Source: Bdellovibrionales bacterium
GTDB lineage: Bacteria > Bdellovibrionota > Bdellovibrionia > Bdellovibrionales > DASUEL01
Assembly (NCBI GenBank): GCA_050250255.1
Contig: JBFWOZ010000038.1
Coordinates: 1 to 27,702 of the forward strand
Direction: 5' to 3'
DNA: 27,702 nucleotides
In this document: in pieces, positions 1 through 20,410 of the stretch
How positions within the stretch are numbered: the first letter of the stretch is position 1
Layout: every line of letters starts with the position of its first letter
Made by a program: the position numbers and the translations under genes
The notes under the pieces: generated by a model
The model's database searches: none
What the model was told of the DNA's origin: nothing
The model's input: the letters and a program-made list of their open reading frames with translations, nothing else

Positions 1-533
1 GAAAATTCTATACTCACATGGGTTATGAAGTCACCAAAGCTAAAGATAATTGGCAGTACTCACGAAGTTACACATTTAATTATGCTATCCCTTTTTGGCA
101 TGAAGGTATAAGTGCCAATTATGTAGTTGTCCCTGGTAAGTTCGGTACAAGCCTCTATTTGTTAAATGCTTGGGATGGTCGGATTTCGCAAGAATCCAAC
201 AAGTCATCCACTGTAGGTGCAAATTTTAATTTTATTCCCGTTGATGGGCTTGTTGCGAATTACAACTATATCGGAGGTATTGAGACAAGTGCGACAGATG
301 CCGTTCGTGAAGTTCACGAGGTTAATGTCGCTTACAATTTAAACTCTATGTTCAGCTTTGCAACAGATCTGGTTTTCGGTTCACAAAAGAAAGTGGGAAC
401 TGTGGATGCAAGATGGTCAGGTGTTGCTTTTTATGCTAAGGCTGCATTGAACGATTGGTACATATTAAGTCCACGTTATGAAACCTTCGATGATTCAGAT
501 CAGGGCTTTGCAATCTCAGGTGGGCTTGCAGGT
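1..533 (+). CDS. Outer-membrane beta-barrel porin (BBP2/OmpL-like), 5' cut by the window edge and 3' truncated at a junction near 533
   Basis: The frame is open from the window start: KFYTHMGYEVTKAKDNWQYSRSYTFNYAIPFWHEG resembles the BBP2 GKFxTxxGYE...N..YSRS..F....PF.H.G signature, followed by amphipathic strands (WSGVAFYA, ILSPRYETFDD). After ...SGGLAG the ORF reads the antisense of another gene up to the stop at 740. Confidence 0.7.
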
Positions 534-718
534 CCCTCAATTTCAACATCTTTAAGGTGCTTAAATTGCAGTTCCTCTTCAGGCATCATCGACTTCACGA
601 CAAATCCCTTACTCGATACCGGAAAAACTTCCGATGAGCTCGAGTCATTCTGCGAACCAAGTTGTGCCATAGCCACAGAACCACTCAAGACCATCGATGC
701 GATTAAAAGTGATTTCAT
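500..718 (-). pseudogene. 3'-truncated paralog of the 749-1708 secreted/outer-membrane protein
   Basis: A GGAG RBS precedes ATG 718 and there is a signal peptide. SGSVAMAQLGxQNDSxSSEVFPVSSKGFVVKSMMPEE is shared with 749-1708. Homology ends at KDVEIEG (~534), and the last 10 aa are antisense porin sequence. Confidence 0.75.
534..703. repeat. Diverged direct repeat, copy A (copy B ~1512-1681, offset 978 nt)
   Basis: Ungapped alignment by eye. An exact 30-nt block CTCTTCAGGCATCATCGACTTCACGACAAA lies at 575-604 and 1553-1582. Confidence 0.92.
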
Positions 719-748
719 ATTTATTTCTCCATTTTTTTAAATAAAGTT

Positions 749-1708
749 CTAATTTCTCTCAAACCACTTAGCATCTTTATTACCAAACCCAATAGACAGT
801 TGGCCTGTAATTCTTCTGTTGCCCTGACGACCCATGTACGCAGTAACCATAAACCCTAGATCTGGCACATCATAACCTGGGACAACAACTCGCACACTAG
901 CAGTATAACCACTCTCACGGAGAACACGATCATCTACTGAAGTCGATAAATCTAAATATTTGGTGCCAGGCTCAGGATTTACCTGATGAAATCCATATGA
1001 CATTTTATGCTTCGAAAAAAAGTATCCCGCAGCAAACCCAAGATAAGCGTTCTCCCCTACAGGCAAGACATACAAATCATGTTCAACAGCAAACACGTAG
1101 CCAGATATATCTGGCTCAACATTCTTGCGTTCTGTCTCTTGATCATGGTCATTGCCCGAAATAGCACCGGCGCTTATCCTCAGAGTACGGTAAAAATGAG
1201 GACGATAACTCACAAAAACCTCTTCACCGCCGGAGCTCTTAAGAATTTCTTCACGGTTAGAAGGATCTAAAGCGATCCCTCCAGGCGCCCAATTGGGCCC
1301 TAAAGTAGCTTGAGCAGCCGCACGATCTGCACTAATTTGTTTCTGAGATAATTGAGTGCGTCCAAATCCAAAGCCAAATTGAAACATACCTTCACGACTT
1401 AAAGCTTTTCGAGCTTTACCAAACCACCAATACACTCCACGCTTCTTCAATGAATCTTTCGAGGCCAAAATGTCATCATGACTTTGAGTTTGGTAATGAA
1501 CATATTCTTTACCTTCAACAACAACATCTTTCACATATGTGAACTCTAATTTCTCTTCAGGCATCATCGACTTCACGACAAAACCTTTACTCGATACCGG
1601 GAAAACTTCCGATGAGTCTGAGTCGTTCTGCGGGCCAAGTTGCGCCATAGCTACAGAACCACTGAAAATTATCGATACCATTAATGAATTTTTAATTAAT
1701 TTTTTCAT
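749..1708 (-). CDS. Secreted protein, probable outer-membrane beta-barrel in the C-terminal two-thirds
   Basis: ATG 1708 has a GAGGA RBS (preferred over 1720). Signal peptide MKKLIKNS...VAMA. Alternating strands MFQFGFGFG, YVFAVEHDLY, YLGFAAGYF, YTASVRVV, ITGQLSIGF. Confidence 0.7.
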   Translation of the reverse strand: MKKLIKNSLMVSIIFSGSVAMAQLGPQNDSDSSEVFPVSSKGFVVKSMMPEEKLEFTYVKDVVVEGKEYVHYQTQSHDDILASKDSLKKRGVYWWFGKARKALSREGMFQFGFGFGRTQLSQKQISADRAAAQATLGPNWAPGGIALDPSNREEILKSSGGEEVFVSYRPHFYRTLRISAGAISGNDHDQETERKNVEPDISGYVFAVEHDLYVLPVGENAYLGFAAGYFFSKHKMSYGFHQVNPEPGTKYLDLSTSVDDRVLRESGYTASVRVVVPGYDVPDLGFMVTAYMGRQGNRRITGQLSIGFGNKDAKWFERN

Positions 1709-1731
1709 GTTATTCCTCAATGTTTTTTAAA

Positions 1732-2985
1732 TCATTTCACTTTTTTAAACCAGCTGGCATTCCAAATGGCATAAGCTTCATCAAATTCGTTATCTTGAAT
1801 TTTAACTTCTACATATATATCATCATTCTGAACTACAGATGCCGAACTGACAGAAGAGAAAACATAATTTACTGTGCCAGAAATTGTTGATCCGTTTTTA
1901 TGTTCACCCTTGACGCTGTCGCCTTTACAAATCCTGTCACCCTTCTCTGTATGAAAACAGTCGTTCTCAAAATATAAAGGTACACCGTCTTTAACCCCAT
2001 CAATCGTGGCAGTTCCATCTGAAACCGCTACATTGTTCTCACGAAGCCACGTGATTTTCTTATAATCACCAGTCGTATTCACACCAACGAAAGTTGCTTT
2101 TTTTCCATCCATTTCTTTAACTACTAGAACTGCAGGTCCCTTTAGCCCTGCAGTTCTTTTTTCTTTATCTTGTTTCTGAAAAGAACCCATAGTTGGAATT
2201 CCTGGAATAGTATCCAATCCAAGATCTTTCACAAGGCCTTGAACTTCGGAGAGTCGTTCACGAATAAAATCATTCACTTCACGATAGAGAGCTAAACCTT
2301 CTAAAGTATTTCCAGGCTTTCTCTTTTCAATCTCATTCAAGTAAACGAAAGTTTTTGTCACAACGTGCGCTGCAGCCTGCCGAGCCACGATGTCACCATT
2401 CATGTCATTGGCAAGAAGCTTCAAGGATTCTCGAGACAATTCCAATTTTGTGTCATGTTGTGGAGCTAAGTCATAAAGACTCAACATCATTTGAGCATGC
2501 ATCACGCCTAACTTAAAGCGATTGATCGGCTGAATTCCCAAACGAGGATCCGCTTTAATCTTCAAAAGAAATTGCTCTTCTGGTTTATAGAGTTCAATCG
2601 CCCATAAAACGGATAATCGAAGCAAACGATATGAAACCGCATACCGATCACCCGATATCGCAGAAGCACCGATAATATCATCAAGGTTACGAGCTCGACG
2701 AAGCACCGAACGCATATAAAGCTCTTGGCCTTTATCATCCGAACCTTCAATCACATCATCAATGAGTTTTCGAATCACACGATGACGTTCGCTGTATTTC
2801 ACTTTGTTGATATTACGAAGACCTTCTTCCAATTGAAGTTTTGAATGTTGCGCAAGACCTAAAAGATCTTTCACAAGATTCAAATCAATAGATGTCGAAA
2901 CCGCATCTTTGACATCTCCGGGCTTCTGAGCCAAAGCCACAGAACCTGCCATCACAACTGCTAATAAAATAATAAATTGTTTCAT
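1732..2985 (-). CDS. Secreted hypothetical protein with a helical N-terminal domain and a small beta-rich C-terminal domain with a Cys pair
   Basis: 417 aa ORF with signal peptide MKQFIILLAVVMAGSVALA and an AGGA RBS inside the upstream gene end. C-terminal segment CFHTEKGDRICKGDSV...SGTVNYVF. Confidence 0.8.
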   Translation of the reverse strand: MKQFIILLAVVMAGSVALAQKPGDVKDAVSTSIDLNLVKDLLGLAQHSKLQLEEGLRNINKVKYSERHRVIRKLIDDVIEGSDDKGQELYMRSVLRRARNLDDIIGASAISGDRYAVSYRLLRLSVLWAIELYKPEEQFLLKIKADPRLGIQPINRFKLGVMHAQMMLSLYDLAPQHDTKLELSRESLKLLANDMNGDIVARQAAAHVVTKTFVYLNEIEKRKPGNTLEGLALYREVNDFIRERLSEVQGLVKDLGLDTIPGIPTMGSFQKQDKEKRTAGLKGPAVLVVKEMDGKKATFVGVNTTGDYKKITWLRENNVAVSDGTATIDGVKDGVPLYFENDCFHTEKGDRICKGDSVKGEHKNGSTISGTVNYVFSSVSSASVVQNDDIYVEVKIQDNEFDEAYAIWNASWFKKVK

Positions 2986-2987
2986 GA

Positions 2988-3719
2988 CTATTTCCTTTTC
3001 TCTAACAGCAACATCGATGAAATATTGGTGCTGGCAGGAGACGCAATGGCTACGAACTCCGACTCACCATCTTTAAAACTGATGACAACTCCGGTAATTT
3101 TCGCAGTTTCAACTTCGCGAAAGTTACTGTTCTCGATAATTCTTCTTAACGTATGAATACCTGTCTGTTCATTTCGGATGGCATAATCCGCTTCCGAACC
3201 CGCTGCTAAGCGACCACTCACTCCACCGTCAATTTCAGAAAAACGACTGAACAAAACAGCTGCTTTCTCTTTACCAAAACGACCCTCTGGCAACGGCAAC
3301 ACCATTTGCAAATTTGCCAATCGGCGCTTAAAAGTCATTCGGACATAACTAGTACCGGCGTTAGGTACCAAAACAATTTCTGATTTTCCTTTTTGATCAA
3401 TCACTCTCAAAGAGGCAACTGGATCATTCAGCACAAGGTCTTCACCACCAGGTGCCAGCGCGAAAGGCTTAAGCCCCATCGTTGCAGCGTTCTTGCGTTC
3501 CGCATACAGCAACTGCACCCCTTTGTTATCACCATGGATCAAAGTCACAATGGCTGTACCTACGGAGTTAGCACGTGGAACAATAATGATTCGCACTTTG
3601 GAGCCTTGCTGAGTCTCACCTTCGTAAGCTCCAGAAAGATCTCTCACATCAGCATTCGCCTTCGGGGCGGCTGCGACCGCAGCCATCACAGCTACGGTCA
3701 AAAGAACTAGAATTTTCAT
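2988..3719 (-). CDS. Secreted hypothetical beta-rich protein
   Basis: 243 aa, GAGGTG RBS, signal peptide ending ...PKANA. The mature N-terminus DLSGAYEG is typical of small beta-barrel domains. There is a 2-nt gap to the next gene. Confidence 0.8.
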   Translation of the reverse strand: MKILVLLTVAVMAAVAAAPKANADVRDLSGAYEGETQQGSKVRIIIVPRANSVGTAIVTLIHGDNKGVQLLYAERKNAATMGLKPFALAPGGEDLVLNDPVASLRVIDQKGKSEIVLVPNAGTSYVRMTFKRRLANLQMVLPLPEGRFGKEKAAVLFSRFSEIDGGVSGRLAAGSEADYAIRNEQTGIHTLRRIIENSNFREVETAKITGVVISFKDGESEFVAIASPASTNISSMLLLEKRK

Positions 3720-3745
3720 AAATCACCTCTTCTATTCATTACTTT

Positions 3746-4726
3746 TTAAAATGGGCTTCTATAATTATAAGGACCACGATGACAATGGCGTGTCGAAGAC
3801 AGCCAGTTCGAAGCGTGAGTCACTTCTTCACGAGCAAACTGTACCGCTTGATCTCCATGATCAAAATCATCGCGACTGCCGGCATTAAATGTTCTCAACA
3901 TGCTGCTTGTACGATCAAGACTACCGATGAGACATGCATAACTACGACGAGATAAATCTTGATTAAGATCCTGAGCTGCCCAACGAGTCACAAATTCTGC
4001 AACACGGGTTTCGTAGTAATTTTTTGCAAGTGCTTCCGGTAAACGATTTCCATCAATCGTGCGACCAATATAGAGGTTCAACAAAGAGGCTGCCGACTGG
4101 CTATACGCCGCCATGAATGGCTCACGGAAAGTTTCTGGCAGACAATCAAACGTCGTACATGCACGACGGTAGTCTCTCTGGTAAGGAATGTAATAGTTTG
4201 TATCCAGTGGGATAATACTATTAAGAATCCATACATAAAATCGTGATACGAGATAATTTGCAGCTCGTGTTTCAAGATCGATACAGAGCTCAACAGATTC
4301 TGGATCTCTCATAGTTCGACACGCGCCCGTTACAAGAGTATTTGCTTGAAGTGCTCTTTGGACAGCTCGTTTTGTGAGGGGTTGGTAAGTCCATTGGTAC
4401 GACATAAGTCTTAAAGCTTTCTCAAGACCAATCTTAAGAAGTTCTCTTTGACGTGCGGGATCACCGTTACGTAAAACACGGCTGTACGCCCAACGCAATT
4501 CTGTCGCGACACCTTGGCAAGCCACTGCGGCGTCACTCATATCTGAGTACACATCACTCAGTGGTCCGTCGGAGGCACCTTTACCCACATCAGCACCGTA
4601 TAAAACACTTGTGCCGGTTAAAATCTGAAACTCCTCTTGCGTAGGATATCCTGGCGCTTGAGATTGTGCTTGCTGCGAGCCCATGCTGACGAGCAATGCT
4701 GTTAAAATAAATACGAACTTCTTCAT
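3746..4726 (-). CDS. Secreted, helical, Cys-containing hypothetical protein
   Basis: 326 aa, signal peptide MKKFVFILTALLVSMGSQQAQS. The ATG overlaps the upstream stop (ATGA) with an AAGGAG RBS. Confidence 0.82.
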   Translation of the reverse strand: MKKFVFILTALLVSMGSQQAQSQAPGYPTQEEFQILTGTSVLYGADVGKGASDGPLSDVYSDMSDAAVACQGVATELRWAYSRVLRNGDPARQRELLKIGLEKALRLMSYQWTYQPLTKRAVQRALQANTLVTGACRTMRDPESVELCIDLETRAANYLVSRFYVWILNSIIPLDTNYYIPYQRDYRRACTTFDCLPETFREPFMAAYSQSAASLLNLYIGRTIDGNRLPEALAKNYYETRVAEFVTRWAAQDLNQDLSRRSYACLIGSLDRTSSMLRTFNAGSRDDFDHGDQAVQFAREEVTHASNWLSSTRHCHRGPYNYRSPF

Positions 4727-5616
4727 ACATCTTCTCCTTCTTGAGATGTTAGAGGGTTTGTCTTCTTCGGCGCTGAATCTTCTGTCAGTTCATACATCTG
4801 CACATTCATTTGAATAACGCTGTTGCATTGACTCTGTTGAGGATCGATGACCGAGTATCGACGGTTGATTTCTCCAAAAAACTGGTTAATCGCTTTTTGG
4901 ATTTCTTCATTTTTGTCTTTATCTATAGCAATAGTAAGAGCGCGCACATTCCAGCTTTCAAAAGAATCTTCTTTAATGGACTCACTAGCGCGCTCTAAAT
5001 TTTGAGTGTGGTAACGGCGAATCTGTAGATTCACGATATCTTGGCTGTATTGAATCGTGGGGTCAGACTGTACTAACCTTTGCTGATCATTTTTTCTAAG
5101 AAGTCCTGTCTTTAATAAAACTTCGATGGCGTGCTTCGCCTGTTTAGGCGTTACTTTGTTTTTTAGTTTTTTTGAAATGTACTGAGGGCTTTCGTCAAAA
5201 TCTTTTAATAAAACAAGCTCTCGAATCGCTAAAATGTACCAATGATTGAAAACTTCAAACTGATCATGAGCAATTTCTACGGCCGCATTTTGCTCACCAT
5301 CGGCTGCCGCTCTTAAAAGATCAAAGTAATGCTTTTTAGAAACTTCATTTTTGTTTTGCGAATAATTCACGAGAGCTTCAAAATAAAGACTCTCTTTTCG
5401 AGTTAACTCAAACCCTATACAAAATTTTGGGATGTTCTCGCTGGACAGATTCCGCTCGCCATCAATGACGCGTTTCAAGTAGTTGCGAGTCTGTAAGCCT
5501 GCTTTTTTAGAAAACACTGCCAGCGAGAAACTCCCACGGGTCTCTTTTTTAAATTTTAACATTTCTCCCAAGTACTTTCGGTAATCGAGATAATCGTAGA
5601 TGCGAGGGCGCTTCAA
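4723..5616 (-). CDS. TIGR02147 / DUF4423 family protein with N-terminal HTH (putative DNA-binding regulator)
   Basis: Family-type motifs IYDYLDYRKYL, FSLAVFSKKAGL...YLKRVIDGERNLS, YFEALV, FNHWYILAIREL, IRRYH, VIQMNVQMY. The start is uncertain: TTG 5616 (GAGG RBS, giving MKRPRIYDY) is preferred over ATG 5673, which has no RBS. Confidence 0.88.
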   Translation of the reverse strand: MKRPRIYDYLDYRKYLGEMLKFKKETRGSFSLAVFSKKAGLQTRNYLKRVIDGERNLSSENIPKFCIGFELTRKESLYFEALVNYSQNKNEVSKKHYFDLLRAAADGEQNAAVEIAHDQFEVFNHWYILAIRELVLLKDFDESPQYISKKLKNKVTPKQAKHAIEVLLKTGLLRKNDQQRLVQSDPTIQYSQDIVNLQIRRYHTQNLERASESIKEDSFESWNVRALTIAIDKDKNEEIQKAINQFFGEINRRYSVIDPQQSQCNSVIQMNVQMYELTEDSAPKKTNPLTSQEGEDV

Positions 5617-5634
5617 TGCGCCCTCGCGCTCTAC
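5596..5634 (-). promoter_or_regulatory. GC-rich mRNA hairpin covering the putative RBS and start codon of the TIGR02147 gene
   Basis: Perfect 10-bp stem GCGAGGGCGC/GCGCCCTCGC (5602-5611 and 5618-5627) with a 6-nt loop containing the TTG. It is extendable by GTAGA/TCTAC. Confidence 0.5.
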
Positions 5635-5740
5635 TGGGACTGGAATGTTAGAGGGGACAATCTCTTTTTCCATAACGTGAGACAGTTTTAACGCACTGTT
5701 ACCAAAAGTGTGAGAGTAGATATTACAAAACGCTATTTCG

Positions 5741-5759
5741 TGTTCCCAGGCCGGGAACA
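5741..5759. promoter_or_regulatory. Palindromic candidate operator TGTTCCC-N5-GGGAACA
   Basis: Perfect 7-bp inverted repeat in the divergent intergenic region upstream of an HTH gene. Confidence 0.5.
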
Positions 5760-5812
5760 ACTTAACTGGTACATTGATTGCTAATGAAAGGGAGTCGTGA
5801 AGAGGAAAAGAA

Positions 5813-6982
5813 ATGGCAAGACACTCTATATCTCTGAAAATTCTGTTCTATTTTAAAAATAAGAGCTGTTTAGTTCTCTACGTAGGGAGCTTTATACTGT
5901 TTCCGCTAGCCTTCTCGGTCGCTTCTGTACAGAACTTCGACAGCAATCATGGCGTTTCAAAGTTTTGCAAACATTTTGCTGAAGATGAAAGCCGCTTTGT
6001 CGATTTCCAAATCCCTCTTCAAGGGCATGAAATGAAGAAAGTGAGAGTGGAGTGGCCTAAACTCGAGCTCAGCCCAAGACTTCTTTCTTCAGAGAGCATT
6101 TTCATTTCGAGCATGTCGTTAGCCTTAGAAACCCTGAGCGAGCAAGGCCATTTAGAAAAACTAGAACATCTACACATCCTTATGAATCTGCCCGATGATG
6201 CAGGTTTTGGAGCCGCTTTCTGCACAAATCTGCAGACAGATTCTTCTACTGCAGTTCTGCTTGTAAATCGTCGCACAATGACTCAGTCACAGCAGCTCAT
6301 GCGATTGATCCCTCATGAACTGGCTCATTGGGCAATGGATCAACATAAAAAAGATTTTCCGCGATGGTTCGAAGAAACTCTTGGCACCATTCAAGAGTTT
6401 CGCACCATGAAAGAACCAACCGGCCCATGGTTTTTAGCAACCTTAAGATTTCCTCAAATGGGGCTCACCTCTCTTGAATCCAACAATGTTTTAGAAGATC
6501 CCAATCAGCGTTTAGCAGCTTACGGTCAAGTCGCCCTGTTTTCTATTTTTCTTGAGAAACATGCAAAACACTCACTTTTAACTTTCGCACTTAAAAAAGA
6601 AGAACAAGATCCATTTAAAATCTTAGAAGACTTTGTAGATAAATATCTCCATGACAAATTCGACAATTTAAAAGAGGCCTTCATAGCTTTCATAGTCGCC
6701 AAGCACATCAACAGACTTAATAATGCCACTGGGAGTGAAGATCCTGAGCTCACGCTGATCTATCCTACAACAGAAGTAGCGCCCACCTTCTCTCAACCAC
6801 CTTTGCTTCAACCTTGGTCAGGAATTTCTGTTGCTCTGACGCTTCCTCCAACTTCTTCCGAACTCGAAAAAGAATATTGGGTTGAAACATCTATGCTAAA
6901 AACCACGAAAATTGCACCATTGAAGAGCCATCCAAAATGCCCTTTTGAAGAATGCCTTCGACTCCGTATTCGTTTCGATTGA
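5813..6982 (+). CDS. Putative exported gluzincin-type zinc metallopeptidase
   Basis: LIPHELAHWAM followed by PRWFEETLG (HExxH plus a downstream Glu ligand) and a later AYG...LF helix. N-terminal hydrophobic segment and AGAGG RBS. Confidence 0.65.
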   Translation: MARHSISLKILFYFKNKSCLVLYVGSFILFPLAFSVASVQNFDSNHGVSKFCKHFAEDESRFVDFQIPLQGHEMKKVRVEWPKLELSPRLLSSESIFISSMSLALETLSEQGHLEKLEHLHILMNLPDDAGFGAAFCTNLQTDSSTAVLLVNRRTMTQSQQLMRLIPHELAHWAMDQHKKDFPRWFEETLGTIQEFRTMKEPTGPWFLATLRFPQMGLTSLESNNVLEDPNQRLAAYGQVALFSIFLEKHAKHSLLTFALKKEEQDPFKILEDFVDKYLHDKFDNLKEAFIAFIVAKHINRLNNATGSEDPELTLIYPTTEVAPTFSQPPLLQPWSGISVALTLPPTSSELEKEYWVETSMLKTTKIAPLKSHPKCPFEECLRLRIRFD

Positions 6983-9099: not shown

Positions 9100-10461
9100 T
9101 CAATAGGCGCTAATATCGCGACCTTTTTTCATTGCGAAAATCCGAATCGGTATTCCAGAGAGATTCCACTCTTCTTTAATCTTCTTCGCCACAAAACGAC
9201 GATAAGCTGTCGTCACTCCGTCTGGAAAGTTCGTGAAGGCGATAAAACTAGGTGGGCGCTGTTGAGTTTGGGTGAGATAATAAAATGACACATTCTTGGT
9301 TCCATAAACCGGAGCCGGTGCCAAACGAATCACGTTCGTAAAGAATTTGTTTAAAGCACTCGTTGAAATACGAAAATTGAGTTGCGTCCAAGTTTCATCG
9401 ATAGTTTCAAAAAGTTCGTCCATCCCGGCACCTGTTTTTGCGCTTACAAAAACGATTTTTATATCTTCAAAGAAGTGGAATACTTTTGAGACTTTCTCAC
9501 GAAAGCCACTGCGATAGGCAGGGATCTCTTTATTCCCAATGTCTGATTTATTGGCGACAAGAATAAGGCCTTTATGCTTTTCTAAAATCATTTCGGCCAT
9601 TTTTGCATCTTGTTCCGTTGGACCCTCGGTGCCATCAACCATCAACAAAATGATGTCGGCCCGATAAATTGAACCCTCTGATTTGAAAGCCGAGATGATC
9701 TCAACGTCGTCTTTGCGGCGAGCTTGTTTTCTTAAACCTGCGGTATCGATAATCGTGTATTGCTTGCCATTACGTTCGAACTCTAAATCAACAGCATCCA
9801 CTGTTGTTCCAGCGGTTTCAGACACCAGCATGCGTTCTGAACCCATCAAGTAATTACAAAACGAGCTCTTTCCGACATTTGGTTTCCCAAGTACGGAAAT
9901 ACAGAGTCCACGCGTATGATGCGTCTGTTTTTCTGGAAGACGCGCTACAATCCACTCTAGGATCTCATCCAGACCCCGACGCTGTTCGAAAGAGGTCGCA
10001 ACAACATCCGATTCTGAGCTAAATTCACTAAATTCAATGCGTGCATTTTCTTCGTCTTGGCGGCTATCAACTTTATTGATGACAAGTAAAAAGGGCTTTT
10101 CAGAACGGTGAACGATTCTCATCACATCACGGTCTTCAGGACATAAACCTGCACGTCCATCCAAAACCACAATCACTAAATCAACACTTTGAAGAGTACG
10201 AAGAACTTGCTCTTTAATCATGACCGAAAATTGATCCGCGGCATCCGTGAGCCCGCCAGTGTCCATGAGGTCAAACTTTGAGCTCAACCATTCGACAGGC
10301 GCAATTTGAATATCACGAGTGACTCCAGGCTGATCTTTTACAACCGCTTTGCGGGTACCAGTAAAAATATTAAAAAGGGTCGACTTCCCTACGTTCGGGC
10401 GGCCAATAATCGCAACCGTACCACGTGAGGGCAATACGACATCACCGGGTTTCGCTGACAT
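9100..10461 (-). CDS. der: Ribosome biogenesis GTPase Der (EngA)
   Basis: Two GTPase domains (GRPNVGKS/DTGG/NKVD and GKPNVGKS/DTAG/NKSD) and a C-terminal KH-like domain (YLTQ...PPSF...GIPIRI). Confidence 0.98.
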   Translation of the reverse strand: MSAKPGDVVLPSRGTVAIIGRPNVGKSTLFNIFTGTRKAVVKDQPGVTRDIQIAPVEWLSSKFDLMDTGGLTDAADQFSVMIKEQVLRTLQSVDLVIVVLDGRAGLCPEDRDVMRIVHRSEKPFLLVINKVDSRQDEENARIEFSEFSSESDVVATSFEQRRGLDEILEWIVARLPEKQTHHTRGLCISVLGKPNVGKSSFCNYLMGSERMLVSETAGTTVDAVDLEFERNGKQYTIIDTAGLRKQARRKDDVEIISAFKSEGSIYRADIILLMVDGTEGPTEQDAKMAEMILEKHKGLILVANKSDIGNKEIPAYRSGFREKVSKVFHFFEDIKIVFVSAKTGAGMDELFETIDETWTQLNFRISTSALNKFFTNVIRLAPAPVYGTKNVSFYYLTQTQQRPPSFIAFTNFPDGVTTAYRRFVAKKIKEEWNLSGIPIRIFAMKKGRDISAY

Positions 10462-11395
10462 ACCCTAACTCCTGAAGCTCATGTCGATTTGTACTCCAGC
10501 CTTCTTTGACTACAACATGTAGGCCTAAGAACACTTTTCCACCGATGAGATTTTGAATGTTTTTACGAGCTTCAGAACCAATCGTTTTAATCATCTCTCC
10601 ACTTTTACCAATTACGATTTGCTTATGAGATTGTCGTTCCACAATAAGATCTGCTTCGATACGCGTCATGTTTTTAGTTTCCTCACTCGCTTCTTCAAAA
10701 GAACGAATGGACACGGCGGTGCCGTATGGAATTTCCTGCTTTAAATTTAAAAAACATTGTTCACGAATAAACTCCGCACAAAGATCGCGAATCCTGTGCG
10801 TTGTAGAGAGATCAGGATCATAAAGAGGTCCAGGAGAAATCGGCATATAAGGACGAAGAAGCGTTCTCATTTGCTCTTGCAAGCGATCTTGAGTTTTCTT
10901 TTTATCTGTCAGTCGACTTGAAATAAATGTGATGGCGGCCACTTTGTCGGCATACTTTTGTTGAGCCAGATCCAAGGCTTCTGCCATTTGACTTCCCTTA
11001 GCCATATCCGCTTTGGAAATACAGAGAACGATCGGTTTTTTTGTTTTCAAAAGTTCCTGCAGAATACTACTTTGATCTTTTTTGACGTTCTCTACAGAGA
11101 GGAGCCACAAAAAGGCATCAGCACCTTTAACGGCTTCATCAAACTCATCTTTTAAAAACTGATTCATCTTGCTGCGTACTTTCCAGATATATCCTGGAGG
11201 ATCGATAAAAATAATCTGTTCATTTTCTGAAGAAAGAATTCCCGGAGTTCTTCGTTGAGTCGTTTGCGGCTTAGAAGAAACGATGGCGAGTTTTTCACCG
11301 ATCAGTAAATTTAAAAGCGTGCTTTTACCTGCATTTGCTTCACCAACAATTGCGACAAAACCAGCACGAAAATCATTTTCTAATTTCTCACCCAT
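10442..11395 (-). CDS. era: GTPase Era
   Basis: AGFVAIVG..NAGKSTLLN, KPQTT, EFIREQ, QEIPY, KH motif VIGKSGEMIK, L.LHVVVKEGW. Lies between rnc and der. Confidence 0.97.
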   Translation of the reverse strand: MGEKLENDFRAGFVAIVGEANAGKSTLLNLLIGEKLAIVSSKPQTTQRRTPGILSSENEQIIFIDPPGYIWKVRSKMNQFLKDEFDEAVKGADAFLWLLSVENVKKDQSSILQELLKTKKPIVLCISKADMAKGSQMAEALDLAQQKYADKVAAITFISSRLTDKKKTQDRLQEQMRTLLRPYMPISPGPLYDPDLSTTHRIRDLCAEFIREQCFLNLKQEIPYGTAVSIRSFEEASEETKNMTRIEADLIVERQSHKQIVIGKSGEMIKTIGSEARKNIQNLIGGKVFLGLHVVVKEGWSTNRHELQELGYVSETR

Positions 11396-11410
11396 TCTTA
11401 AACCTTATCC

Positions 11411-12154
11411 TTACATTCTTTCAAGACCCATACGGGCCGCAGCTTGCTCAGCTGCTTTTTTAGTACGACCCCAACCGAGCCCGACAGTTCGTCCATTCAC
11501 CTTCACACGCACTTCAAAGCGCCTGTTGTGCTCAGGGCCAATTTCTTCTTGAAGCTTATATTGCGGCACAGATGCAAAATTCTTTTGAGATAACTCTTGA
11601 AGCTTTGATTTGTAATCACAGCTAAAATCTGAAGACCAATCGTGATGTTGTATTTGTACTCTTAAAATAGGCCGAAGAACAGTCTGAACTGTGGCGTAGT
11701 CAGAATCTTTGAGAATCGCTCCGATCACCGCTTCGAAGGCAGAAGACAAAATACGAGGATTTGAAGCAACTCCTGCCGCTTTTTCCCCACGACCTAAACG
11801 CAATCTTGTATCAAATTTGAGTTCGAGAGCTAAATCAGAGAGCGCCTGCTCGTTCACAAGGCTTGCGCGACGTTTTGAAAGATTACCCTCGGTATCTTCC
11901 GGGAAAATCTCCATTAATAATTCTGTCACCAGAAGTCCTAAAACCGAATCACCCAAAAACTCGAAAGTTTCATTATGTGACGATGACTCTTCGTGAGGAT
12001 TTTCATTTGCAAAACTTTTATGTGTCAGCGCCTGAATGAGAAGCTGAGTATTTTTAAACTGGTAACCGAGAATGTAGCCTTCACCGGGAGTCATGCTCAT
12101 TTCTCCTTTAGATTCTACAATGGATTCAATTTGCGAACTTTCAAGAGTCTTCAC
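11411..12154 (-). CDS. rnc: Ribonuclease III
   Basis: ALTHKS, NETFEFLGDSVL, EGNLSKRRA, FEAVIGA, and a dsRBD (DYKSKLQE...GPEHNRRF...KKAAEQAAA). GGGAGG RBS before GTG. Confidence 0.97.
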   Translation of the reverse strand: MKTLESSQIESIVESKGEMSMTPGEGYILGYQFKNTQLLIQALTHKSFANENPHEESSSHNETFEFLGDSVLGLLVTELLMEIFPEDTEGNLSKRRASLVNEQALSDLALELKFDTRLRLGRGEKAAGVASNPRILSSAFEAVIGAILKDSDYATVQTVLRPILRVQIQHHDWSSDFSCDYKSKLQELSQKNFASVPQYKLQEEIGPEHNRRFEVRVKVNGRTVGLGWGRTKKAAEQAAARMGLERM

Positions 12155-12264
12155 AATAAAAACCTCCCACCATTTTGGTCTAATTTCTTGGGCGATTGTG
12201 CTCTATTTTCGAGATTTTTTTAAGTGTTTTAACAGCCCGTGTTAATTCGATATGTCAAAAGATC

Positions 12265-13602
12265 TTACAGGGAGATGGCGGTGAGGCGGCCGGAGAATTC
12301 GCCCTTCTCAAAACCTCTATGACCTGTAATTTTTATAGAACGCTCTTCGCCCATCTGTATCGGTTCTTCCATAATCACCGGCCAGTAATCTCTTGTTAAT
12401 GTACGTGTCGTTAATTGGCTTTGAGCTAAAGTTTCTGGAGAATCCTTTAGAGGAAGTGCCCATTTCACTGTGCCTACTTGTTTTTCTGCTTCGCTTACAA
12501 AGCGATTATAACTCAGTTCCCGCAAGCGGCGTGCACGTTCTTTGATATGAGCCGGCTCTACCGGATTCGGTAAGCGAAGTGCCAGAGTCCCGGGTCGCTG
12601 GCTGTAAGGAAAGACATGGAGTCGTGTCCAAGGAAGTTCGTGTAAACGCTGGTAAGTATCTAAAAAGTCCTCTTCCGTTTCTCCAGGAAATCCTGCGATG
12701 ACATCCATTCCAACAAAAGCATGAGGCAGCTGCGTGGCGATCGCCTTCAACGCTTCTTCCACTTGCTCCGCGGAGTACTGACGCTTCATATCTCTCAGCA
12801 CTTTCGTATTCGCGCTCTGAATACTCATGTGAAAATGCGTACAAAGCCGAGGGTCACGATAAAGTTCTAACAAGCGTGGTGTGAGCTCAATAGGTTCTAG
12901 ACTAGAAAGACGAAAACGTGGAATTTTTGTTTTTAAAAGAAGGATCTCGACGAGATCTTCCAATGTGTTTGTTTGATCCTGGTAATCACCAATATGGACT
13001 CCGGTGAGTACAACTTCACGAATGTTTTTTTCGTAAAGCGCGTTTGCGCGACTGACTAAATCAGCAATAGGAATACTTCGGCTTTTCCCTCTCGCAAAAG
13101 GGATTACGCAAAAGGTACAAAAGCTGTTACAGCCATCCTGAATTTTTAAAAAAGAACGTGTGTGATCTTCTTCTAATCCCCCACCCGCTTCGAGATCGTC
13201 TTTTTTGAAAATCAAACTTTTAAAAACTTTTTCTTGAAGTTGGCCCTTAAAATATTTTTCAATCAAATTTTCGATTTGACCTTTATGGGAGTTGGCAACC
13301 ACGAGGTCGACTCCAGGAAGACTACTGAATTGATCTGTATCCACCTGTGCCGCACAACCGGTCACAACAACCGTACAGAAAGGATCTTTGCTCTTGAGAC
13401 GGCGAACTAATTTGACGGCTTCTTTGGTGGCTTCACTCGTCACCGCACAAGTATTTAAGATGTGAATTTTGCTTTCGCTTTTTTCGGGGTTCGTCCACGT
13501 ATCGACAGACTTTTTGGCTTCAAACCTCTGAGTGAGAAGACCGGAATCGTAAGTATTCACCTTACAACCAAAAGTGTGGATATTATATTTTAAACGATCC
13601 AT
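12265..13602 (-). CDS. mtaB: tRNA t6A37 methylthiotransferase MtaB
   Basis: TFGCKVNTYD, NTCAVT, VTGCAAQ, radical SAM motif KIQDGCNSFCTFC, RLSSLEP, LHVFPYSQRPGT. Confidence 0.95.
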   Translation of the reverse strand: MDRLKYNIHTFGCKVNTYDSGLLTQRFEAKKSVDTWTNPEKSESKIHILNTCAVTSEATKEAVKLVRRLKSKDPFCTVVVTGCAAQVDTDQFSSLPGVDLVVANSHKGQIENLIEKYFKGQLQEKVFKSLIFKKDDLEAGGGLEEDHTRSFLKIQDGCNSFCTFCVIPFARGKSRSIPIADLVSRANALYEKNIREVVLTGVHIGDYQDQTNTLEDLVEILLLKTKIPRFRLSSLEPIELTPRLLELYRDPRLCTHFHMSIQSANTKVLRDMKRQYSAEQVEEALKAIATQLPHAFVGMDVIAGFPGETEEDFLDTYQRLHELPWTRLHVFPYSQRPGTLALRLPNPVEPAHIKERARRLRELSYNRFVSEAEKQVGTVKWALPLKDSPETLAQSQLTTRTLTRDYWPVIMEEPIQMGEERSIKITGHRGFEKGEFSGRLTAISL

Positions 13603-14735
13603 CCGCCGCCCAGCAATTGATTGTCACGATAAACAACTGCCGCCTGCCCTGGAGTGATGGCACGTTGAGGTTGATCAAAATGAACTACGGTCTGTTCGTC
13701 CTCGATACGAATTTCTCCGAGAGCGCCTTCGTGGTGTGCGCGAATTTTAAATTTCACTTTTTCGCCAGGCTGCACCCGGGTGATCCAGCTTGTTTTTTCT
13801 AAAATCATTTTATCTGAAAAAAGATATTTCTCTTCCCCAACCCAAACGACATTTTCTTTGGGATCAATTTTTAGAACAAAAAGAGGTTCGTGGTGATCAA
13901 GCCCTAAGCCTTTACGTTGACCGTAAGTGAAGTGATGAATTCCGTTATGCTCGCCGATCACTTCACCAGAAGGGTATCGTTTAAAAACGCCACCCACGAG
14001 CAGATCTTTTGCGACTTGAGACTCAATGAAGTTTGCGTAACCTTTATTACCCACAAAACAAATTCCGATAGAGTCTTTTTTACGAGCGTTCACGAGCTTT
14101 TTTTCTTCGGCAATTTTTCTCACCTGATCTTTTGTCATATCGCCAATCGGAAATAGCAAAAACGGCAGGACTTCCTTACGCATAGTGAAAAGAAAATAGG
14201 TTTGATCTTTCCAAGTGTCATCGCTTACGACAATTTGATTTTGACCGGACTCATCTTTCGAAATTTTTGCGTAATGTCCAGTTGCGAGATAATCGCAGTC
14301 GAGCTCTTTCATTTTTTGAATTAGGTGATCAAATTTTAAGTAGGTGTTGCAATTCACACAAGGGCTTGGAGTTCGACCTTCGAGATATTGATGAATAAAA
14401 TCGTCGATCACATAGGCTTTGAATTTGGCTTCGCAGTTCATGACGTAAAACGGGAAATCTAAACGATCCGCAACCGCTCTAGCATCTTCCACGTCAACGC
14501 TGGAACAACAGGTTCCTGCACCTTCTTGGATATCACACTCGGTATAATCCCAGACCTGCATCGTGATTCCGACCACATCGTAACCTTGATCTACAAGTAT
14601 TGCGGCTGCCACAGAACTATCCACCCCACCGCTCATCGCCACGAGAACCCGAGGTTTTGTTTTCGCAGTTGTGCTGCCGTTTGATTTTCTAAGTTGAAAA
14701 TGAGGAACTAACTCATTCATACCAGCCTCACTCAT
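13590..14735 (-). CDS. mnmA: tRNA 2-thiouridine(34) synthase MnmA
   Basis: PP-loop AMSGGVDSS, PSPCVNCN, ATGHYA, KDQTYFL, KKDSIGICF, TYGQRKGLG, AITPGQAAV. Confidence 0.98.
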   Translation of the reverse strand: MSEAGMNELVPHFQLRKSNGSTTAKTKPRVLVAMSGGVDSSVAAAILVDQGYDVVGITMQVWDYTECDIQEGAGTCCSSVDVEDARAVADRLDFPFYVMNCEAKFKAYVIDDFIHQYLEGRTPSPCVNCNTYLKFDHLIQKMKELDCDYLATGHYAKISKDESGQNQIVVSDDTWKDQTYFLFTMRKEVLPFLLFPIGDMTKDQVRKIAEEKKLVNARKKDSIGICFVGNKGYANFIESQVAKDLLVGGVFKRYPSGEVIGEHNGIHHFTYGQRKGLGLDHHEPLFVLKIDPKENVVWVGEEKYLFSDKMILEKTSWITRVQPGEKVKFKIRAHHEGALGEIRIEDEQTVVHFDQPQRAITPGQAAVVYRDNQLLGGGWIV

Positions 14736-15928
14736 ATCGCTTCCTCAATGGCTTGACGTTCACGAGCACTGAGATCGCGAATACGCAAAATCGTTCGCTC
14801 TAGAATATCAATAAATCTTTCCACTTCATTTTCTGTGTTGTACCAACCAAAACTCACTCTTAAAGAAGATTGAGCTTGTCGACGGGTAAGACCCATATTG
14901 AGGAGTACGGCACTTGGCTCGGGACTTCCGGCGCTGCAAGCAGATCCCGTACTTACGGCAACACCTTCCATGTCTAATCGCATGAGGAGAGTTTCGCCCT
15001 CAACACCATCAATCACAACACTTGAGGTATTCCCTAAACGTGGAGCTTCTCCCGCTGTAATACTGACTCCCGAGATACGCTTGCAGAGCTCGGATTCAAA
15101 ACGATTACGGAGCTTCGTCATGTACGCAATTTTCTCTTCAAGATATTTTTTCTGATCAGCCATGAGACCAAAAGCCGCGATGGCCATAATATTTTCTGTG
15201 CCCGCGCGACGGTGACGTTCTTGACCTCCACCATGAATGAGGGGTTCAAGATAGTGGCCGCGTTTGGAATAAAGAACTCCGGTACCTTTTAAAGAGTAAA
15301 ATTTGTGTCCTGCAAAGGAGGCAATATCCACATCCAGATCCCGTACGGAAAGAAACATTTTTCCTAAGGCCTGAACCGCATCGGTATGAAAAAGGGCGCC
15401 CTTTTCATGAGCGATACGAGCCATTTTTTTTATGGGAAAGATCGTTCCGGTTTCATTATTTGCGAGCATACAAGAAACAAGGGCCGTGTCTTCGCGAACT
15501 CGAGATTTAAAATCTTCAAGATCAAGGATACCACCAGGAGTAATCGGAAAAATTTCGACTTCAGCTCCAAGTGTTTCAATAAAACGAGCCGCTTCCAGAA
15601 GACTTGGATGCTCCACAGAACTTAAAAGATAATGCCGGCGAGGACTCGCTTGACGCTGATGATGGAAAAAGAGTCCCTTCAGGACAAGATTGTTGGCTTC
15701 ACTTCCGCCACTTGTAAAAATAGTTTCTAGTGGGTCACAGCCGATGAGTTCAGACAAAGATTTACGTGCATCTCGAAGATGAGTTTTAGGCCCGCGCCCA
15801 CCCCAATGAATGGAACTTGGATTTCCAAAATGCTCAGCCCATACAGGGAGTTGGGCCACTACTAGTGGGCTTAAAGGAGCTGTGGCATTATTGTCTAAAT
15901 AGATACGATGTTGTATACCCGAATTCAT
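14732..15928 (-). CDS. iscS: Group I cysteine desulfurase (IscS/NifS family)
   Basis: IYLDNNAT, GNPSSIH, FTSGGSEANN, NNETG, HTDAVQ, HKFY (PLP Lys), RAGTEN, catalytic STGSACSAG. The stop overlaps the mnmA start. Confidence 0.93.
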   Translation of the reverse strand: MNSGIQHRIYLDNNATAPLSPLVVAQLPVWAEHFGNPSSIHWGGRGPKTHLRDARKSLSELIGCDPLETIFTSGGSEANNLVLKGLFFHHQRQASPRRHYLLSSVEHPSLLEAARFIETLGAEVEIFPITPGGILDLEDFKSRVREDTALVSCMLANNETGTIFPIKKMARIAHEKGALFHTDAVQALGKMFLSVRDLDVDIASFAGHKFYSLKGTGVLYSKRGHYLEPLIHGGGQERHRRAGTENIMAIAAFGLMADQKKYLEEKIAYMTKLRNRFESELCKRISGVSITAGEAPRLGNTSSVVIDGVEGETLLMRLDMEGVAVSTGSACSAGSPEPSAVLLNMGLTRRQAQSSLRVSFGWYNTENEVERFIDILERTILRIRDLSARERQAIEEAI

Positions 15929-16118: not shown

Positions 16119-17027
16119 ATGAAGTCTCAACTTCATTTGTATTTAAAAAAAAGGGTGGGGCCTTTTATAAGAACTTTTTTTATTCTGCTGCTTTGCCTCG
16201 ATATGGGGCCACCAGCTGAAGCACAAGAGAGTTCTCTCTCAACGGCTTCTCCGATTCCAGCCATTCAAACTTCGCTACCGGCTCAGCCCACAAATCGCAC
16301 TACACCTTCTTTTTTTAAACTTTCAGGACAAATTAAAAATGAATCGCAAATTCAAGGTTCGCAAGGCCCTCAAGCGCTCTCTCAACTCGTCCTCTCTCTT
16401 ATCCCGAGCCTACAGTGGAAAGAGATCAGGCTTTCTGTGGCTTCCGAACTCACAAAAGAGCAACAGGGAAAACAAAAACTGTCGGTATCTGATACGAAAG
16501 TATCACTAGGGCATAAGCCTCTCACACTTTCGAAAGGGCTTACGACCCAAGCAAAAGTTTCTTATATCGCCGCGACGAATGAGGATTCTATAAAACAAGA
16601 TCGTTTGCGCGCCGGAGCCTCGGTAGAACCCTCTATAAGGCAAGAGCTTCAGTTAGGTGTGCCCGTTACTTTGGATTACCGACTCGGGTTTCGCCAAAAT
16701 TTCCATGAATACAACGTCAATGCTGATGGCAATGCGAATATCCAGTGGGTGTTTTCTCATGTGGTTGGCGTGACAGTAGGAGTGATGGAAGATTTAGAAA
16801 TTTCCATCGCAGGACTATGGCGAACTGCACGCACATACAAAAATTTCGAGCGACTCGGGTTTGGACTCAGCGAAGAAATCAGTTGGGGCGTTTCTAAAAA
16901 CTGGAACCTCTTTCTGGGTCACTCCAATGAAGGAAGTTTGCAACCAGCGGAAAGACAAAATTCAAGTTTAAAAGCTTTTGACGACAAATCCTCTGTGATC
17001 TACGGCGGATTTGGATGGGATTTTTAA
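16119..17027 (+). CDS. Probable outer-membrane beta-barrel protein
   Basis: GGGAGG RBS, signal-peptide-like N-terminus, S/P/T linker, many amphipathic strands, C-terminal beta-signal IYGGFGWDF. Confidence 0.75.
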   Translation: MKSQLHLYLKKRVGPFIRTFFILLLCLDMGPPAEAQESSLSTASPIPAIQTSLPAQPTNRTTPSFFKLSGQIKNESQIQGSQGPQALSQLVLSLIPSLQWKEIRLSVASELTKEQQGKQKLSVSDTKVSLGHKPLTLSKGLTTQAKVSYIAATNEDSIKQDRLRAGASVEPSIRQELQLGVPVTLDYRLGFRQNFHEYNVNADGNANIQWVFSHVVGVTVGVMEDLEISIAGLWRTARTYKNFERLGFGLSEEISWGVSKNWNLFLGHSNEGSLQPAERQNSSLKAFDDKSSVIYGGFGWDF

Positions 17028-17037
17028 AGGAGGGGTT

Positions 17038-20322: not shown

Positions 20323-20362
20323 ATCGAAGTGAGTTTTTCTAGAAAAACAGGCTGTAAATTGG

Positions 20363-20394
20363 GCCGGGAATCTTTATAGATTCCCGGCTTTTTT
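20363..20394 (+). terminator. Rho-independent terminator
   Basis: 11-bp stem GCCGGGAATCT/AGATTCCCGGC, 4-nt loop, then T6, located 40 nt after the metalloprotease stop. Confidence 0.88.
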
Positions 20395-20410
20395 CCGATA
20401 CCTATAGAGT

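Follow-up and report, generated by a model that had tools for sequence, protein, structure and literature searches.

A five-gene locus in Bdellovibrionota that encodes a TIGR02147 regulator, a predicted zinc peptidase and likely exported proteins with a constant base and variable heads

The locus and its conserved unit

The window, that is, the whole stretch of 27,702 nucleotides of Bdellovibrionales DNA that was analyzed, contains six co-oriented minus-strand reading frames, g1 to g6 (Table 1), separated by gaps of -4, 26, 2, 23 and 30 nt. A first-pass annotation had given the same layout with the same gap values, and had regarded the six genes as a regulator-headed module of exported proteins in which no catalytic motif was recognized. 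The module itself holds up for g1 to g4, whose homologs are co-localized in relatives and match no characterized system that could be found, whereas g5 and g6 do not belong to it and a divergent gene with an HExxH motif, UP, has to be added. The conserved unit is therefore composed of five genes: g1 (the TIGR02147 regulator), UP, g2, g3 and g4.

Table 1. Features of the locus (positions refer to the window)
Feature	Positions	Strand	Description	Basis
BBP2 porin fragment	18..740	+	lacks its 3' end	Pfam PF07642
g6	500..718	-	72-residue stump	copy of the first 62 residues of g5
g5	749..1708	-	likely exported orphan, local add-on	barrel-like by alternating hydrophobicity
g4	1732..2985	-	base plus head	
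g4 variable head	1732..2217	-	residues 257-417	beta-rich, SH3/KOW-like by eye
g4 constant helical base	2218..2913	-	residues 25-256	cluster search, AlphaFold2
g3	2988..3719	-	likely exported beta protein, 243 aa	constant neighbor of g4
g2	3746..4726	-	likely exported helical protein, 326 aa	homologous to g4 base
Gly tag of g2	4577..4597	-	residues 44-50, G-x-x-V-G-x-G	comparison of g2 homologs
g1	4723..5673	-	TIGR02147/DUF4423 regulator, 316 aa	Pfam/NCBIfam match, AlphaFold2 model
Palindrome GTTCC-N7-GGAAC	5742..5758		likely g1 operator	genome count, ortholog comparison
UP	5813..6982	+	predicted exported zinc metallopeptidase, divergent from g1	conserved ligands, profile match

We show herein that the five genes are inherited jointly. 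All five occur together in 17 of 27 mapped loci, a set of our own selection made through a g2 match (with the g3 of L012 assigned by hand). Matches to g2 were found in 43 of 401 genomes of the phylum, about a tenth, the complete genomes G004 and G410 among them. The g4 base is also present in 40 of these 43 genomes, where about 5 would be expected by chance, and UP in 36, the other 7 having no UP match. Fifteen genomes had contributed no sequence to the UP alignment; in 11 of these held-out genomes, UP and g2 are no more than 5 kb apart. The gene order varies: UP lies within the operon in L074-L076, and a single UP-g3-g4 arm is found in L077 and L079. Some loci are partial, with UP-g1-g2 only (L015 and L016), without g1 and UP (L080) or without g1 (L064), and g3-g4 pairs lie away from UP in L075, L076 and L080. 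Despite this reshuffling, g3 adjoins g4 in all 21 mapped loci that contain both. The system is not a core function of predation, since 358 of the 401 genomes searched lack it; in the genus-level group g31 it is largely absent, with one weak match in 26 genomes.

Export was judged with a simple heuristic rule for signal peptides, not with SignalP. This rule is passed by g2 to g5, and the N-terminus of g6 is similar by eye, so that the Sec signal peptides originally assigned to all five products downstream of g1 stand for g2 to g5 under the rule and for g6 by eye only. None of g2 to g5 matches a Pfam or NCBIfam family. A scan for sigma-70 promoters and terminators gave counts at chance level (9 versus 9.6 and 4 versus 4.1). 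P0002 had no confirmed relative in a search of genome contigs. The five-gene system is apparently undescribed: no description was found in the largely open-access literature searched, and the titles and opening lines of abstracts of the retroelement and Bdellovibrio literature do not name it.

As parts of a core module, g5 and g6 were rejected: a search of 1533 candidates yielded no relative of g5, nor do the 27 mapped loci contain one. g5 contains 12 alternating hydrophobic stretches. Instead of the full paralog of g5 that it had been taken for, g6 is a stump, 72% identical to g5 over 62 residues. The PF07642 match of the porin fragment stops at residue 176 (profile position 273 of 339), around nt 545, and g6 and this fragment are fused head-on near nt 530-545, the 3' ends of both being missing. 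One contig of run X1 only, possibly itself the source of the window DNA, contains this junction; runs X2 and X3, with scattered coverage only, do not reach it.

The regulator, its candidate operator and UP

g1 scored 209.8 bits against TIGR02147 (curated cut-off 50) and 115 bits against DUF4423 (PF14394; cut-off 30), which confirms its initial reading as a TIGR02147 helix-turn-helix (HTH) protein. Its AlphaFold2 model (pLDDT 87.5) comprises an XRE-type HTH (residues 28-112), an ArsR-like winged HTH (130-213) and a C-terminal region. With VIA-align, g1 matched 3pxp (Z 8.4, rmsd 3.3, 82 aligned) and 2p4w (Z 8.1, rmsd 3.2, 79 aligned), and residues 134-296 matched 4g6q (Z 6.2, rmsd 5.1, 145 aligned). 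Foldseek returned nothing at E<=0.001 among solved structures. HetR was not among the structure matches listed for g1, and a family outside that list may still be similar. The gene had been extended to a TTG start at 5760, but the ATG at 5673 is more likely, because the collection's gene call gives a protein of 316 aa and the palindrome lies at 5742-5758. No function of TIGR02147 was found in print, DUF4423 appearing only as a table entry, and the family is still, as had been noted, one of no established function.

The exact palindrome GTTCC-N7-GGAAC occurs three times in the 3.09-Mb genome. A GTTCC/GGAAC palindrome with a spacer of 6-8 nt lies upstream of all six orthologs with a TRNYLK helix and of none of the 15 others. 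A single operator for all orthologs was rejected, since GTTCC-N7-GGAAC with at most one mismatch is present in only 5 of 21. Four recognition-helix groups have four distinct upstream motifs (6/6, 4/4, 7/8 and 2/2), so the motif of its own helix group lies upstream of 19 of the 21 orthologs; the single ortholog with a unique helix has none of the four. These motifs were defined after the sequences had been viewed, and the helix groups are clades and therefore not independent. From this comparison of sequences, the palindrome is likely the operator of g1, and the self-regulation that had been suggested gains support in that the palindromes track the recognition helix.

TIGR02147 genes occupy 25 loci in the genome, and almost every one has a likely exported gene as its partner: a signal-peptide gene follows at -25 to +30 nt after 21 of 24 evaluable TIGR02147 genes, versus 127 of 1623 other non-exported genes. 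Gly-rich tags are found in 18 of 21 such partners versus 40 of 713 other signal-peptide proteins, by a post hoc pattern, and three of the 21 partners carry HExxH themselves. At the present locus, g2 overlaps g1 through ATGA, the geometry of translational coupling. Its Gly tag, a pattern formulated after seeing the sequences, is present in 20 of 22 g2 homologs located directly after a TIGR02147 gene versus 1 of 14 other g2 homologs.

UP is a predicted zinc peptidase and a core member of the unit. Its HExxH motif spans residues 168-172, and H168, E169, H172, W185 and a further Glu, E188, are invariant in all 22 aligned homologs. The Glu 16 residues on and its WxxEG context resemble those of gluzincin zinc peptidases, and a UP profile matched PDB 7bb8 (E 1.5e-6), a 'Neutral metalloprotease' that we take to be a member of family M30. 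Unlike those peptidases, UP falls outside any single fitting Pfam family; it has weak matches to several zinc-peptidase families, none above the cut-off that was checked, and each Pfam family fits at most 4 of the 22 homologs.

A constant base with changing heads

A search of 1.84 billion representatives with the base of g4 gave matches in 448 clusters at E<=0.001. Its AlphaFold2 model (pLDDT 91.5, pTM 0.88) has ten helices and no strands; the Atlas model of g4 was discarded for its poor quality. Among solved structures, VIA-align ranked a designed repeat protein first (Z 11.8, rmsd 4.1, 202 aligned); common helical bundles give Z values in this range, so the fold is not proven to be new. Foldseek gave nothing at E<=0.001 in solved structures or viral models, and sequence searches of solved structures gave no significant match for the base, g2 or g3. 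By profile alignment, g2 is homologous to the g4 base (hhalign probability 97%, E 1.1e-10, 193 columns). g3 is probably made of two small barrels; the ESM Atlas offered leads only, at 0.80-0.84, to DUF2147, DUF6006 and the avidin family.

The base is N-terminal in all of the best 150 hits, 123 of which pass the signal-peptide rule, and a Glu-Gly motif at its start is conserved at 0.89/0.93. S82, E88, R92, R97, D136, D194 and D198 are also conserved in the base. What follows the base differs widely. Members of the g4 family are 207-729 aa long, and clustering at E 1e-4 divides the 126 heads of at least 60 residues into 59 groups; the head in the window resembles one of the 125 others (P0057, E 1.1e-10). 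Heads above a Pfam cut-off were named in 13 of 149 members (FGE-sulfatase-like 6, RCC1 3, HEAT 2, ankyrin 1 and laminin G 1), folds that include lectin-fold, propeller, HEAT and ankyrin. The 130 of 149 members without any Pfam match leave most heads unnamed, and some could therefore be enzymes or toxins. A check for polymorphic toxins, to be read with this Pfam-less majority in mind, found no toxin among the named heads and g4 arrays placed back to back without small genes between. Tandem arrays hold 2-7 copies, and several headless copies occur (L012, L068, L072, L073, L079 and L080); the window's genome has one g4 only.

In one of the 27 mapped loci (L062, in genome G528), g4 is linked to a diversity-generating retroelement. 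A 130-nt repeat closes its head, the matching template lies after genes for HRDC, bAvd (77 bits) and reverse transcriptase (RVT_1, 79 bits), and 14 of the 15 mismatches between the variable and template repeats fall on template adenines. This g4 is like known retroelement targets with FGE-sulfatase (C-type lectin fold) heads in its variable/template repeat pair, adenine-specific mismatches, bAvd and reverse transcriptase. In contrast, variety at the other g4 loci comes from duplication and head swapping, and the window's g4 has another head and no retroelement: neither reverse transcriptase nor Avd is among the 24 window proteins, and no second copy of its DNA is in the assembly. Thus, g4 keeps one base while its heads change by duplication and domain swapping and, in a single genome, through the retroelement.

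Possible functions and known systems

We consider it an evenly balanced proposition that the locus encodes an exported, self-regulated set of exchangeable target binders, which is coupled to the predicted peptidase and possibly directed against prey surfaces. Since every nameable head is a binding fold, the heads would very probably bind ligands. It is also probable that g1 would bind the palindrome and regulate both arms of the locus. The base may dock on g3, a step inferred from gene order that we slightly favor, with one g3 for up to seven g4 proteins that would act as adaptors sharing one scaffold. Docking on a g3/g2 core would bring UP to varied targets. Somewhat more tentatively, UP may act with or on the assembly and free the Gly tag of g2 as a feedback signal to g1, and it is no less tentative that the targets would be prey or other foreign surfaces. 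Family-5 peptide-binding proteins, four of which are encoded in the genome, could serve re-import; they say little about it, because they are common (11 of 14 control genomes).

F-box adaptor libraries combine a constant docking domain with variable protein-binding domains on one shared enzyme core. By analogy, g4 also presents what may be a constant docking domain with propeller, ankyrin and HEAT domains, but the two show no homology, the docking of g4 is read from gene order only, and g4 likely acts outside the cytoplasm. That the locus is an extracytoplasmic counterpart of an adaptor-ligase, in which swappable recognition subunits, diversified by exchange of heads and by a retroelement, dock through a new helical domain on a shared core and aim UP at prey or competitor proteins and a cut peptide reports to g1, is a rather unlikely form of the proposal. 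We give a similarly low rating to a mosaic adhesin library without a targeted protease, in which the base anchors or polymerizes g4 at the surface, g3 serves as an anchor or as a chaperone for export, and the role of UP is limited to subunit maturation, for example by cutting at the Glu-Gly motif conserved at the start of the base. The conservation of this motif would fit such a cut, the domain common to g2 and g4 is as expected for subunits of one filament, some heads look by eye like outer-membrane barrels, and g3-g4 pairs are found without a nearby UP; the logic of one constant and one variable end is shared with MAT fibres (PMC10769870). Against it stand the proximity of UP to g2 in most held-out genomes and the re-joining of UP with g3-g4 in one operon arm. 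HEAT, ankyrin and RCC1 domains, moreover, are usually associated with protein binding rather than adhesion.

A sensing cascade, with a regulatory rather than destructive output, appears less probable still. Here the heads would be receptors for prey fragments or for phage or competitor proteins, and binding would turn on UP to release the g2 tag, which would be imported and switch g1. Such a cascade would account for the tie of the tag to the position after the regulator and for the Gly-rich tags of other TIGR02147 partners, and the partners with their own HExxH would fit tag and protease being either joined in one protein or split between two. Yet the rarity of the exact palindrome makes the regulon look local, and an output limited to the locus itself explains little. 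Colicin-type proteins likewise join a constant domain to a variable receptor-binding domain, and the constant adjacency of g3 to g4 would suit an immunity protein, so that g4 might be a bacteriocin-like effector with a toxic helical base aimed by its heads. This is very improbable: a mean hydropathy of 1.6 over 19 residues is reached by none of 141 bases, none has an uncharged run of 30 or a hydrophobic hairpin, no toxin fold is prominent among solved or viral structures, and a single g3 accompanies up to seven divergent g4 proteins.

The preferred reading, an exported kit of target binders, can be set beside systems already described. To our knowledge, MAT fibres are the only described prey-recognition library of predatory bacteria. 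g1 and g2 recall RRNPP systems, in which a regulator is encoded beside an exported precursor that has a short conserved tag, together with a protease that may free it. Unlike RRNPP regulators, the g1 model has XRE and winged HTH domains and no TPR, Pfam giving DUF4423 only; and the tag of g2, unlike RRNPP exported peptides, lies near the start of a complete folded protein. The present TIGR02147 gene leads a five-gene system rather than a pair of two genes. The MAT fibres of Bdellovibrio bacteriovorus have a beta-rich base of ~130 aa; they are trimeric, ~1000 aa in length and frequently include S74 (PMC10769870). They are like the g4 family in having a signal peptide, a constant N-terminal domain without a solved homolog, swappable C-terminal binding domains with a C-type lectin fold among them, several copies per genome and the same bacterial group. 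The g4 base, in contrast, is all-helical and 230 aa long, g4 has no beta-rich domain of ~130 aa, and its gene clusters with the regulator, peptidase, g2 and g3. Further domains listed in the supplements of PMC10769870 could bear on novelty.

In Bdellovibrio-type bacteria, the locus likely provides an adaptable set of parts for recognizing targets, possibly prey, and as such would represent a second design of recognition library, unrelated to MAT fibres. Three protein families without a Pfam model are defined here, namely the g2/g4 helical base, g3 and UP, and for TIGR02147 the analysis provides a candidate operator, a candidate peptide ligand and a code that links recognition helix to site in four groups. 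If the adaptor-ligase reading were true, these would be the first ligand and operator code for the large TIGR02147 family, and the locus would provide a natural programmable targeting scaffold.

Gene layout of the window

All six co-oriented minus-strand frames described in the first-pass annotation, with gaps of -4, 26, 2, 23 and 30 nt, are present in the window, a contig of a 3.09-Mb assembly. The first gene (g1) encodes a TIGR02147/DUF4423 protein according to Pfam and NCBIfam, and no family in either collection matched g2 to g5. Although g5 had been placed in the same module, no copy of it was detected in the 27 mapped loci, and a length-limited search of the protein collection gave no relative. 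The supposed paralogy of g6 holds as sequence likeness to g5 (72% over 62 residues) but not at full length, as g6 is a 72-residue copy of the front of g5. Near nt 530-545, g6 collides head-on with a BBP2 porin fragment, and the 3' ends of both are absent. This junction, likely a real deletion, is covered without differences by one contig of sequencing run X1, which may be the source of the window DNA and hence maybe not independent. The porin gene begins at the contig edge, and its sequence matches only itself in the assembly. Another exported protease cluster lies farther along the window (see the table).

Coordinates of the features discussed
Feature	Location	Remark
Broken BBP2 porin gene	window 18-740	
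g1-UP intergenic palindrome	window 5742-5758	
UP	window 5813-6982 (+)	
Housekeeping run	window 9100-15928	cysteine desulfurase, mnmA, mtaB, rnc, era, der
Three co-oriented genes	window 16119-22423	302 aa unknown; 1103 aa, Met-zincin (DUF4953) match; 670 aa unknown
Spore-photoproduct-lyase-like protein	window 24412-25578	
Retroelement (G528)	L062:6491-8862	variable repeat, HRDC, bAvd, reverse transcriptase, template repeat
Beta-rich g4 tail	L065:7428-9455	
Beta-rich g4 tail	L067:5742-9855	
Beta-rich g4 tail	L068:8359-11815	
Beta-rich g4 tail	P0169	
Untagged g2	L014:6075-7244	
Untagged g2	L063:4052-5131	
Untagged g2	L064:8772-9878	
Untagged g2	L074:6787-7917	
Untagged g2	L075:6264-7379	
Untagged g2	L076:8773-9951	
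Divergent TIGR02147 gene	C1:59389	
Divergent TIGR02147 gene	C59:11065	
Divergent TIGR02147 gene	C24:15057	
Core-type palindrome	C45:1968	upstream of paralog
Core-type palindrome	C11:48182	upstream of paralog
Core-type palindrome	C3:81258	upstream of paralog
Core-type palindrome	C24:12111	upstream of paralog
Weak g2-profile match	C12:73531-74232	E 8.6e-5

Five jointly inherited genes

The genes g1, g2, g3, g4 and UP, a divergent gene for a predicted zinc metallopeptidase beside g1, are inherited jointly. As single-sequence queries, g2 and g4 found matches in 8 of 61 and 8 of 301 relatives, respectively. The phylum is probably Bdellovibrionota, since the source of one family member, P0160, gives its name as Bdellovibrionales. 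Among 401 genomes of the phylum, 43 were positive in an alignment search with g2, 51 with a g4 profile (4 of them in the head region only), and 45 for UP at E<=1e-10. The helical N-terminal base of g4 occurs in 40 of the 43 g2-positive genomes (about 5 expected) and UP in 36, counts in which kin are not independent and the positives span more than 10 families. Co-localisation of homologs in relatives, the check named in the first-pass annotation, was observed for g1 to g4, which occur together with UP in 17 of the 27 mapped loci, picked by us from g2 matches.

Wherever g3 and g4 both occur in the mapped loci (21/21), they adjoin each other. The position of UP varies; it is mostly divergent, lies within the operon in L074-L076, and heads the g3-g4 arm in L077 and L079. 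Of 15 genomes that gave the UP alignment no sequence, 11 have UP no more than 5 kb from g2, and in the remaining 4 the UP match and the g2 match are on separate contigs. The HExxH motif and third Glu of UP are kept in all 22 homologs, and its profile matched a neutral metalloprotease among solved structures (E 1.5e-6). The beta protein g3 has small barrels as its nearest Atlas clusters, every score being below 0.9, so that these are leads only.

Constant base and swapped heads of g4

The design of g4 is a constant base with swapped heads. A profile of residues 1-230 retrieved 448 clusters; in the best 150 of these, the start of the base never lies beyond residue 80. The signal-peptide rule is passed by 123 of them, and 126 carry a tail of at least 60 residues, with 59 tail groups at E 1e-4 (44 singletons). 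Thirteen of 149 scanned proteins have named heads over the Pfam cut-off (FGE-sulfatase-like 6, RCC1 3, HEAT 2, ankyrin 1, laminin G 1), and 130 have no Pfam match. A scan of 42 locus proteins adds FGE-sulfatase-like (3), HEAT (2) and laminin G (1) heads, plus weak WD40 and SUEL-lectin matches. Tandem rows of g4 reach seven per locus. The base, modelled as ten helices (pLDDT 91.5, pTM 0.88), showed no clear natural structural match and no membrane hairpin, and is homologous to g2 (alignment against alignment: probability 97%, E 1.1e-10). Protein P0145 apparently has two such bases in tandem. Some g4 tails are long and beta-rich, match no Pfam family and resemble outer-membrane barrels on visual inspection; these could be anchors for the five-gene system.

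Diversity-generating retroelements diversify ligand-binding surfaces. At locus L062, an FGE-sulfatase-like g4 head ends in a 130-nt repeat, the template of which lies 3' of genes for HRDC, bAvd and reverse transcriptase. Of the 15 mismatches between the two, 14 fall at template adenines. Judged from its sequence, this head is the target of a complete retroelement. Two long hairpins lie 3' of the target gene.

Regulator, tag and possible mechanism

Two DNA-binding folds are seen in the g1 model, a helix-turn-helix of XRE type and a winged helix like that of ArsR. In a set of 21 orthologs, the motif found upstream, chosen by eye, tracks the recognition helix, the helix groups being clades: GTTCC-N6..8-GGAAC accompanies TRNYLK (6/6), TTACC..GGTAA SPNYLK (4/4), TGCWGACT SRGY (7/8), and GAAACA-N2-TGTTTC SHTLLG (2/2). 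None of the four motifs precedes the single ortholog whose helix is unique, and one TRNYLK ortholog additionally has the SRGY-type motif.

Two forms of g2 are split by a Gly-rich tag near the front, G-x-x-[IVT]-G-x-G, present in 20 of 22 copies directly after the regulator versus 1 of 14 others, the partial copy of L022 being omitted; the sole tagged copy among the 14 belongs to a locus without g1. Because one domain thus occurs in both tagged and untagged form, it provides its own natural control and links the tag with the regulator. The untagged form is about 80 residues longer and usually lies beside UP.

The genome holds 25 TIGR02147 loci, one at a contig end. A signal-peptide gene (by our own rule) follows tightly in 21 of 24, versus 127 of 1623 control genes, and the remaining 3 are divergent from one. 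These three are not coupled, and all their partners carry a Gly-rich tag. A Gly-rich motif near the front marks 18 of 21 partners versus 40 of 713 other signal-peptide proteins, by a post hoc pattern that misses three, including the window's g2 with its variant tag. Perfect palindromes with arms of at least 7 occur upstream of 18 of 24 paralogs versus 71 of 250 controls. Long paralog-specific palindromes sharing a 7-nt core (mostly CA-CTT-TG) with differing arms were seen in 7 of 24 versus 16 of 1075 control regions. The paralog palindromes look like a family-wide operator code. Another TIGR02147 gene has, two genes upstream, a weak g2-profile match that may reflect chance or a distant relative of the helical base.

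We give about an even chance to a recognition kit joined to a peptidase. The proteins would be exported, the g4 heads would bind ligands, and the base would dock on g3/g2; the docked assembly might be coupled to UP, and the g2 tag released and then returned. Counted against this reading are that most heads are unnamed, some g4 proteins are headless, this genome has one g4 copy only, parts are missing in several loci, and the system is absent from the majority of genomes searched. It is possible, if doubtful, that g4 is simply a library of adhesins that UP matures; a pure sensing cascade appears improbable, and a bacteriocin-like design very improbable.

According to PMC10769870, MAT fibres, like g4, combine a constant end with a variable one, but are defined by a beta-rich base, which g4 lacks. 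RRNPP regulators have a TPR domain, whereas g1 does not. Of retroelement targets, one g4 family member (L062) is bona fide. The literature searched gave no description of the system; in PMC12546842, the DUF4423 protein Bd3700 is in a table of proteins raised during growth inside prey, and this entry was the only printed trace found. The five-gene set appears to be new as a system, for which we infer a function in recognition, the target of which may be prey.
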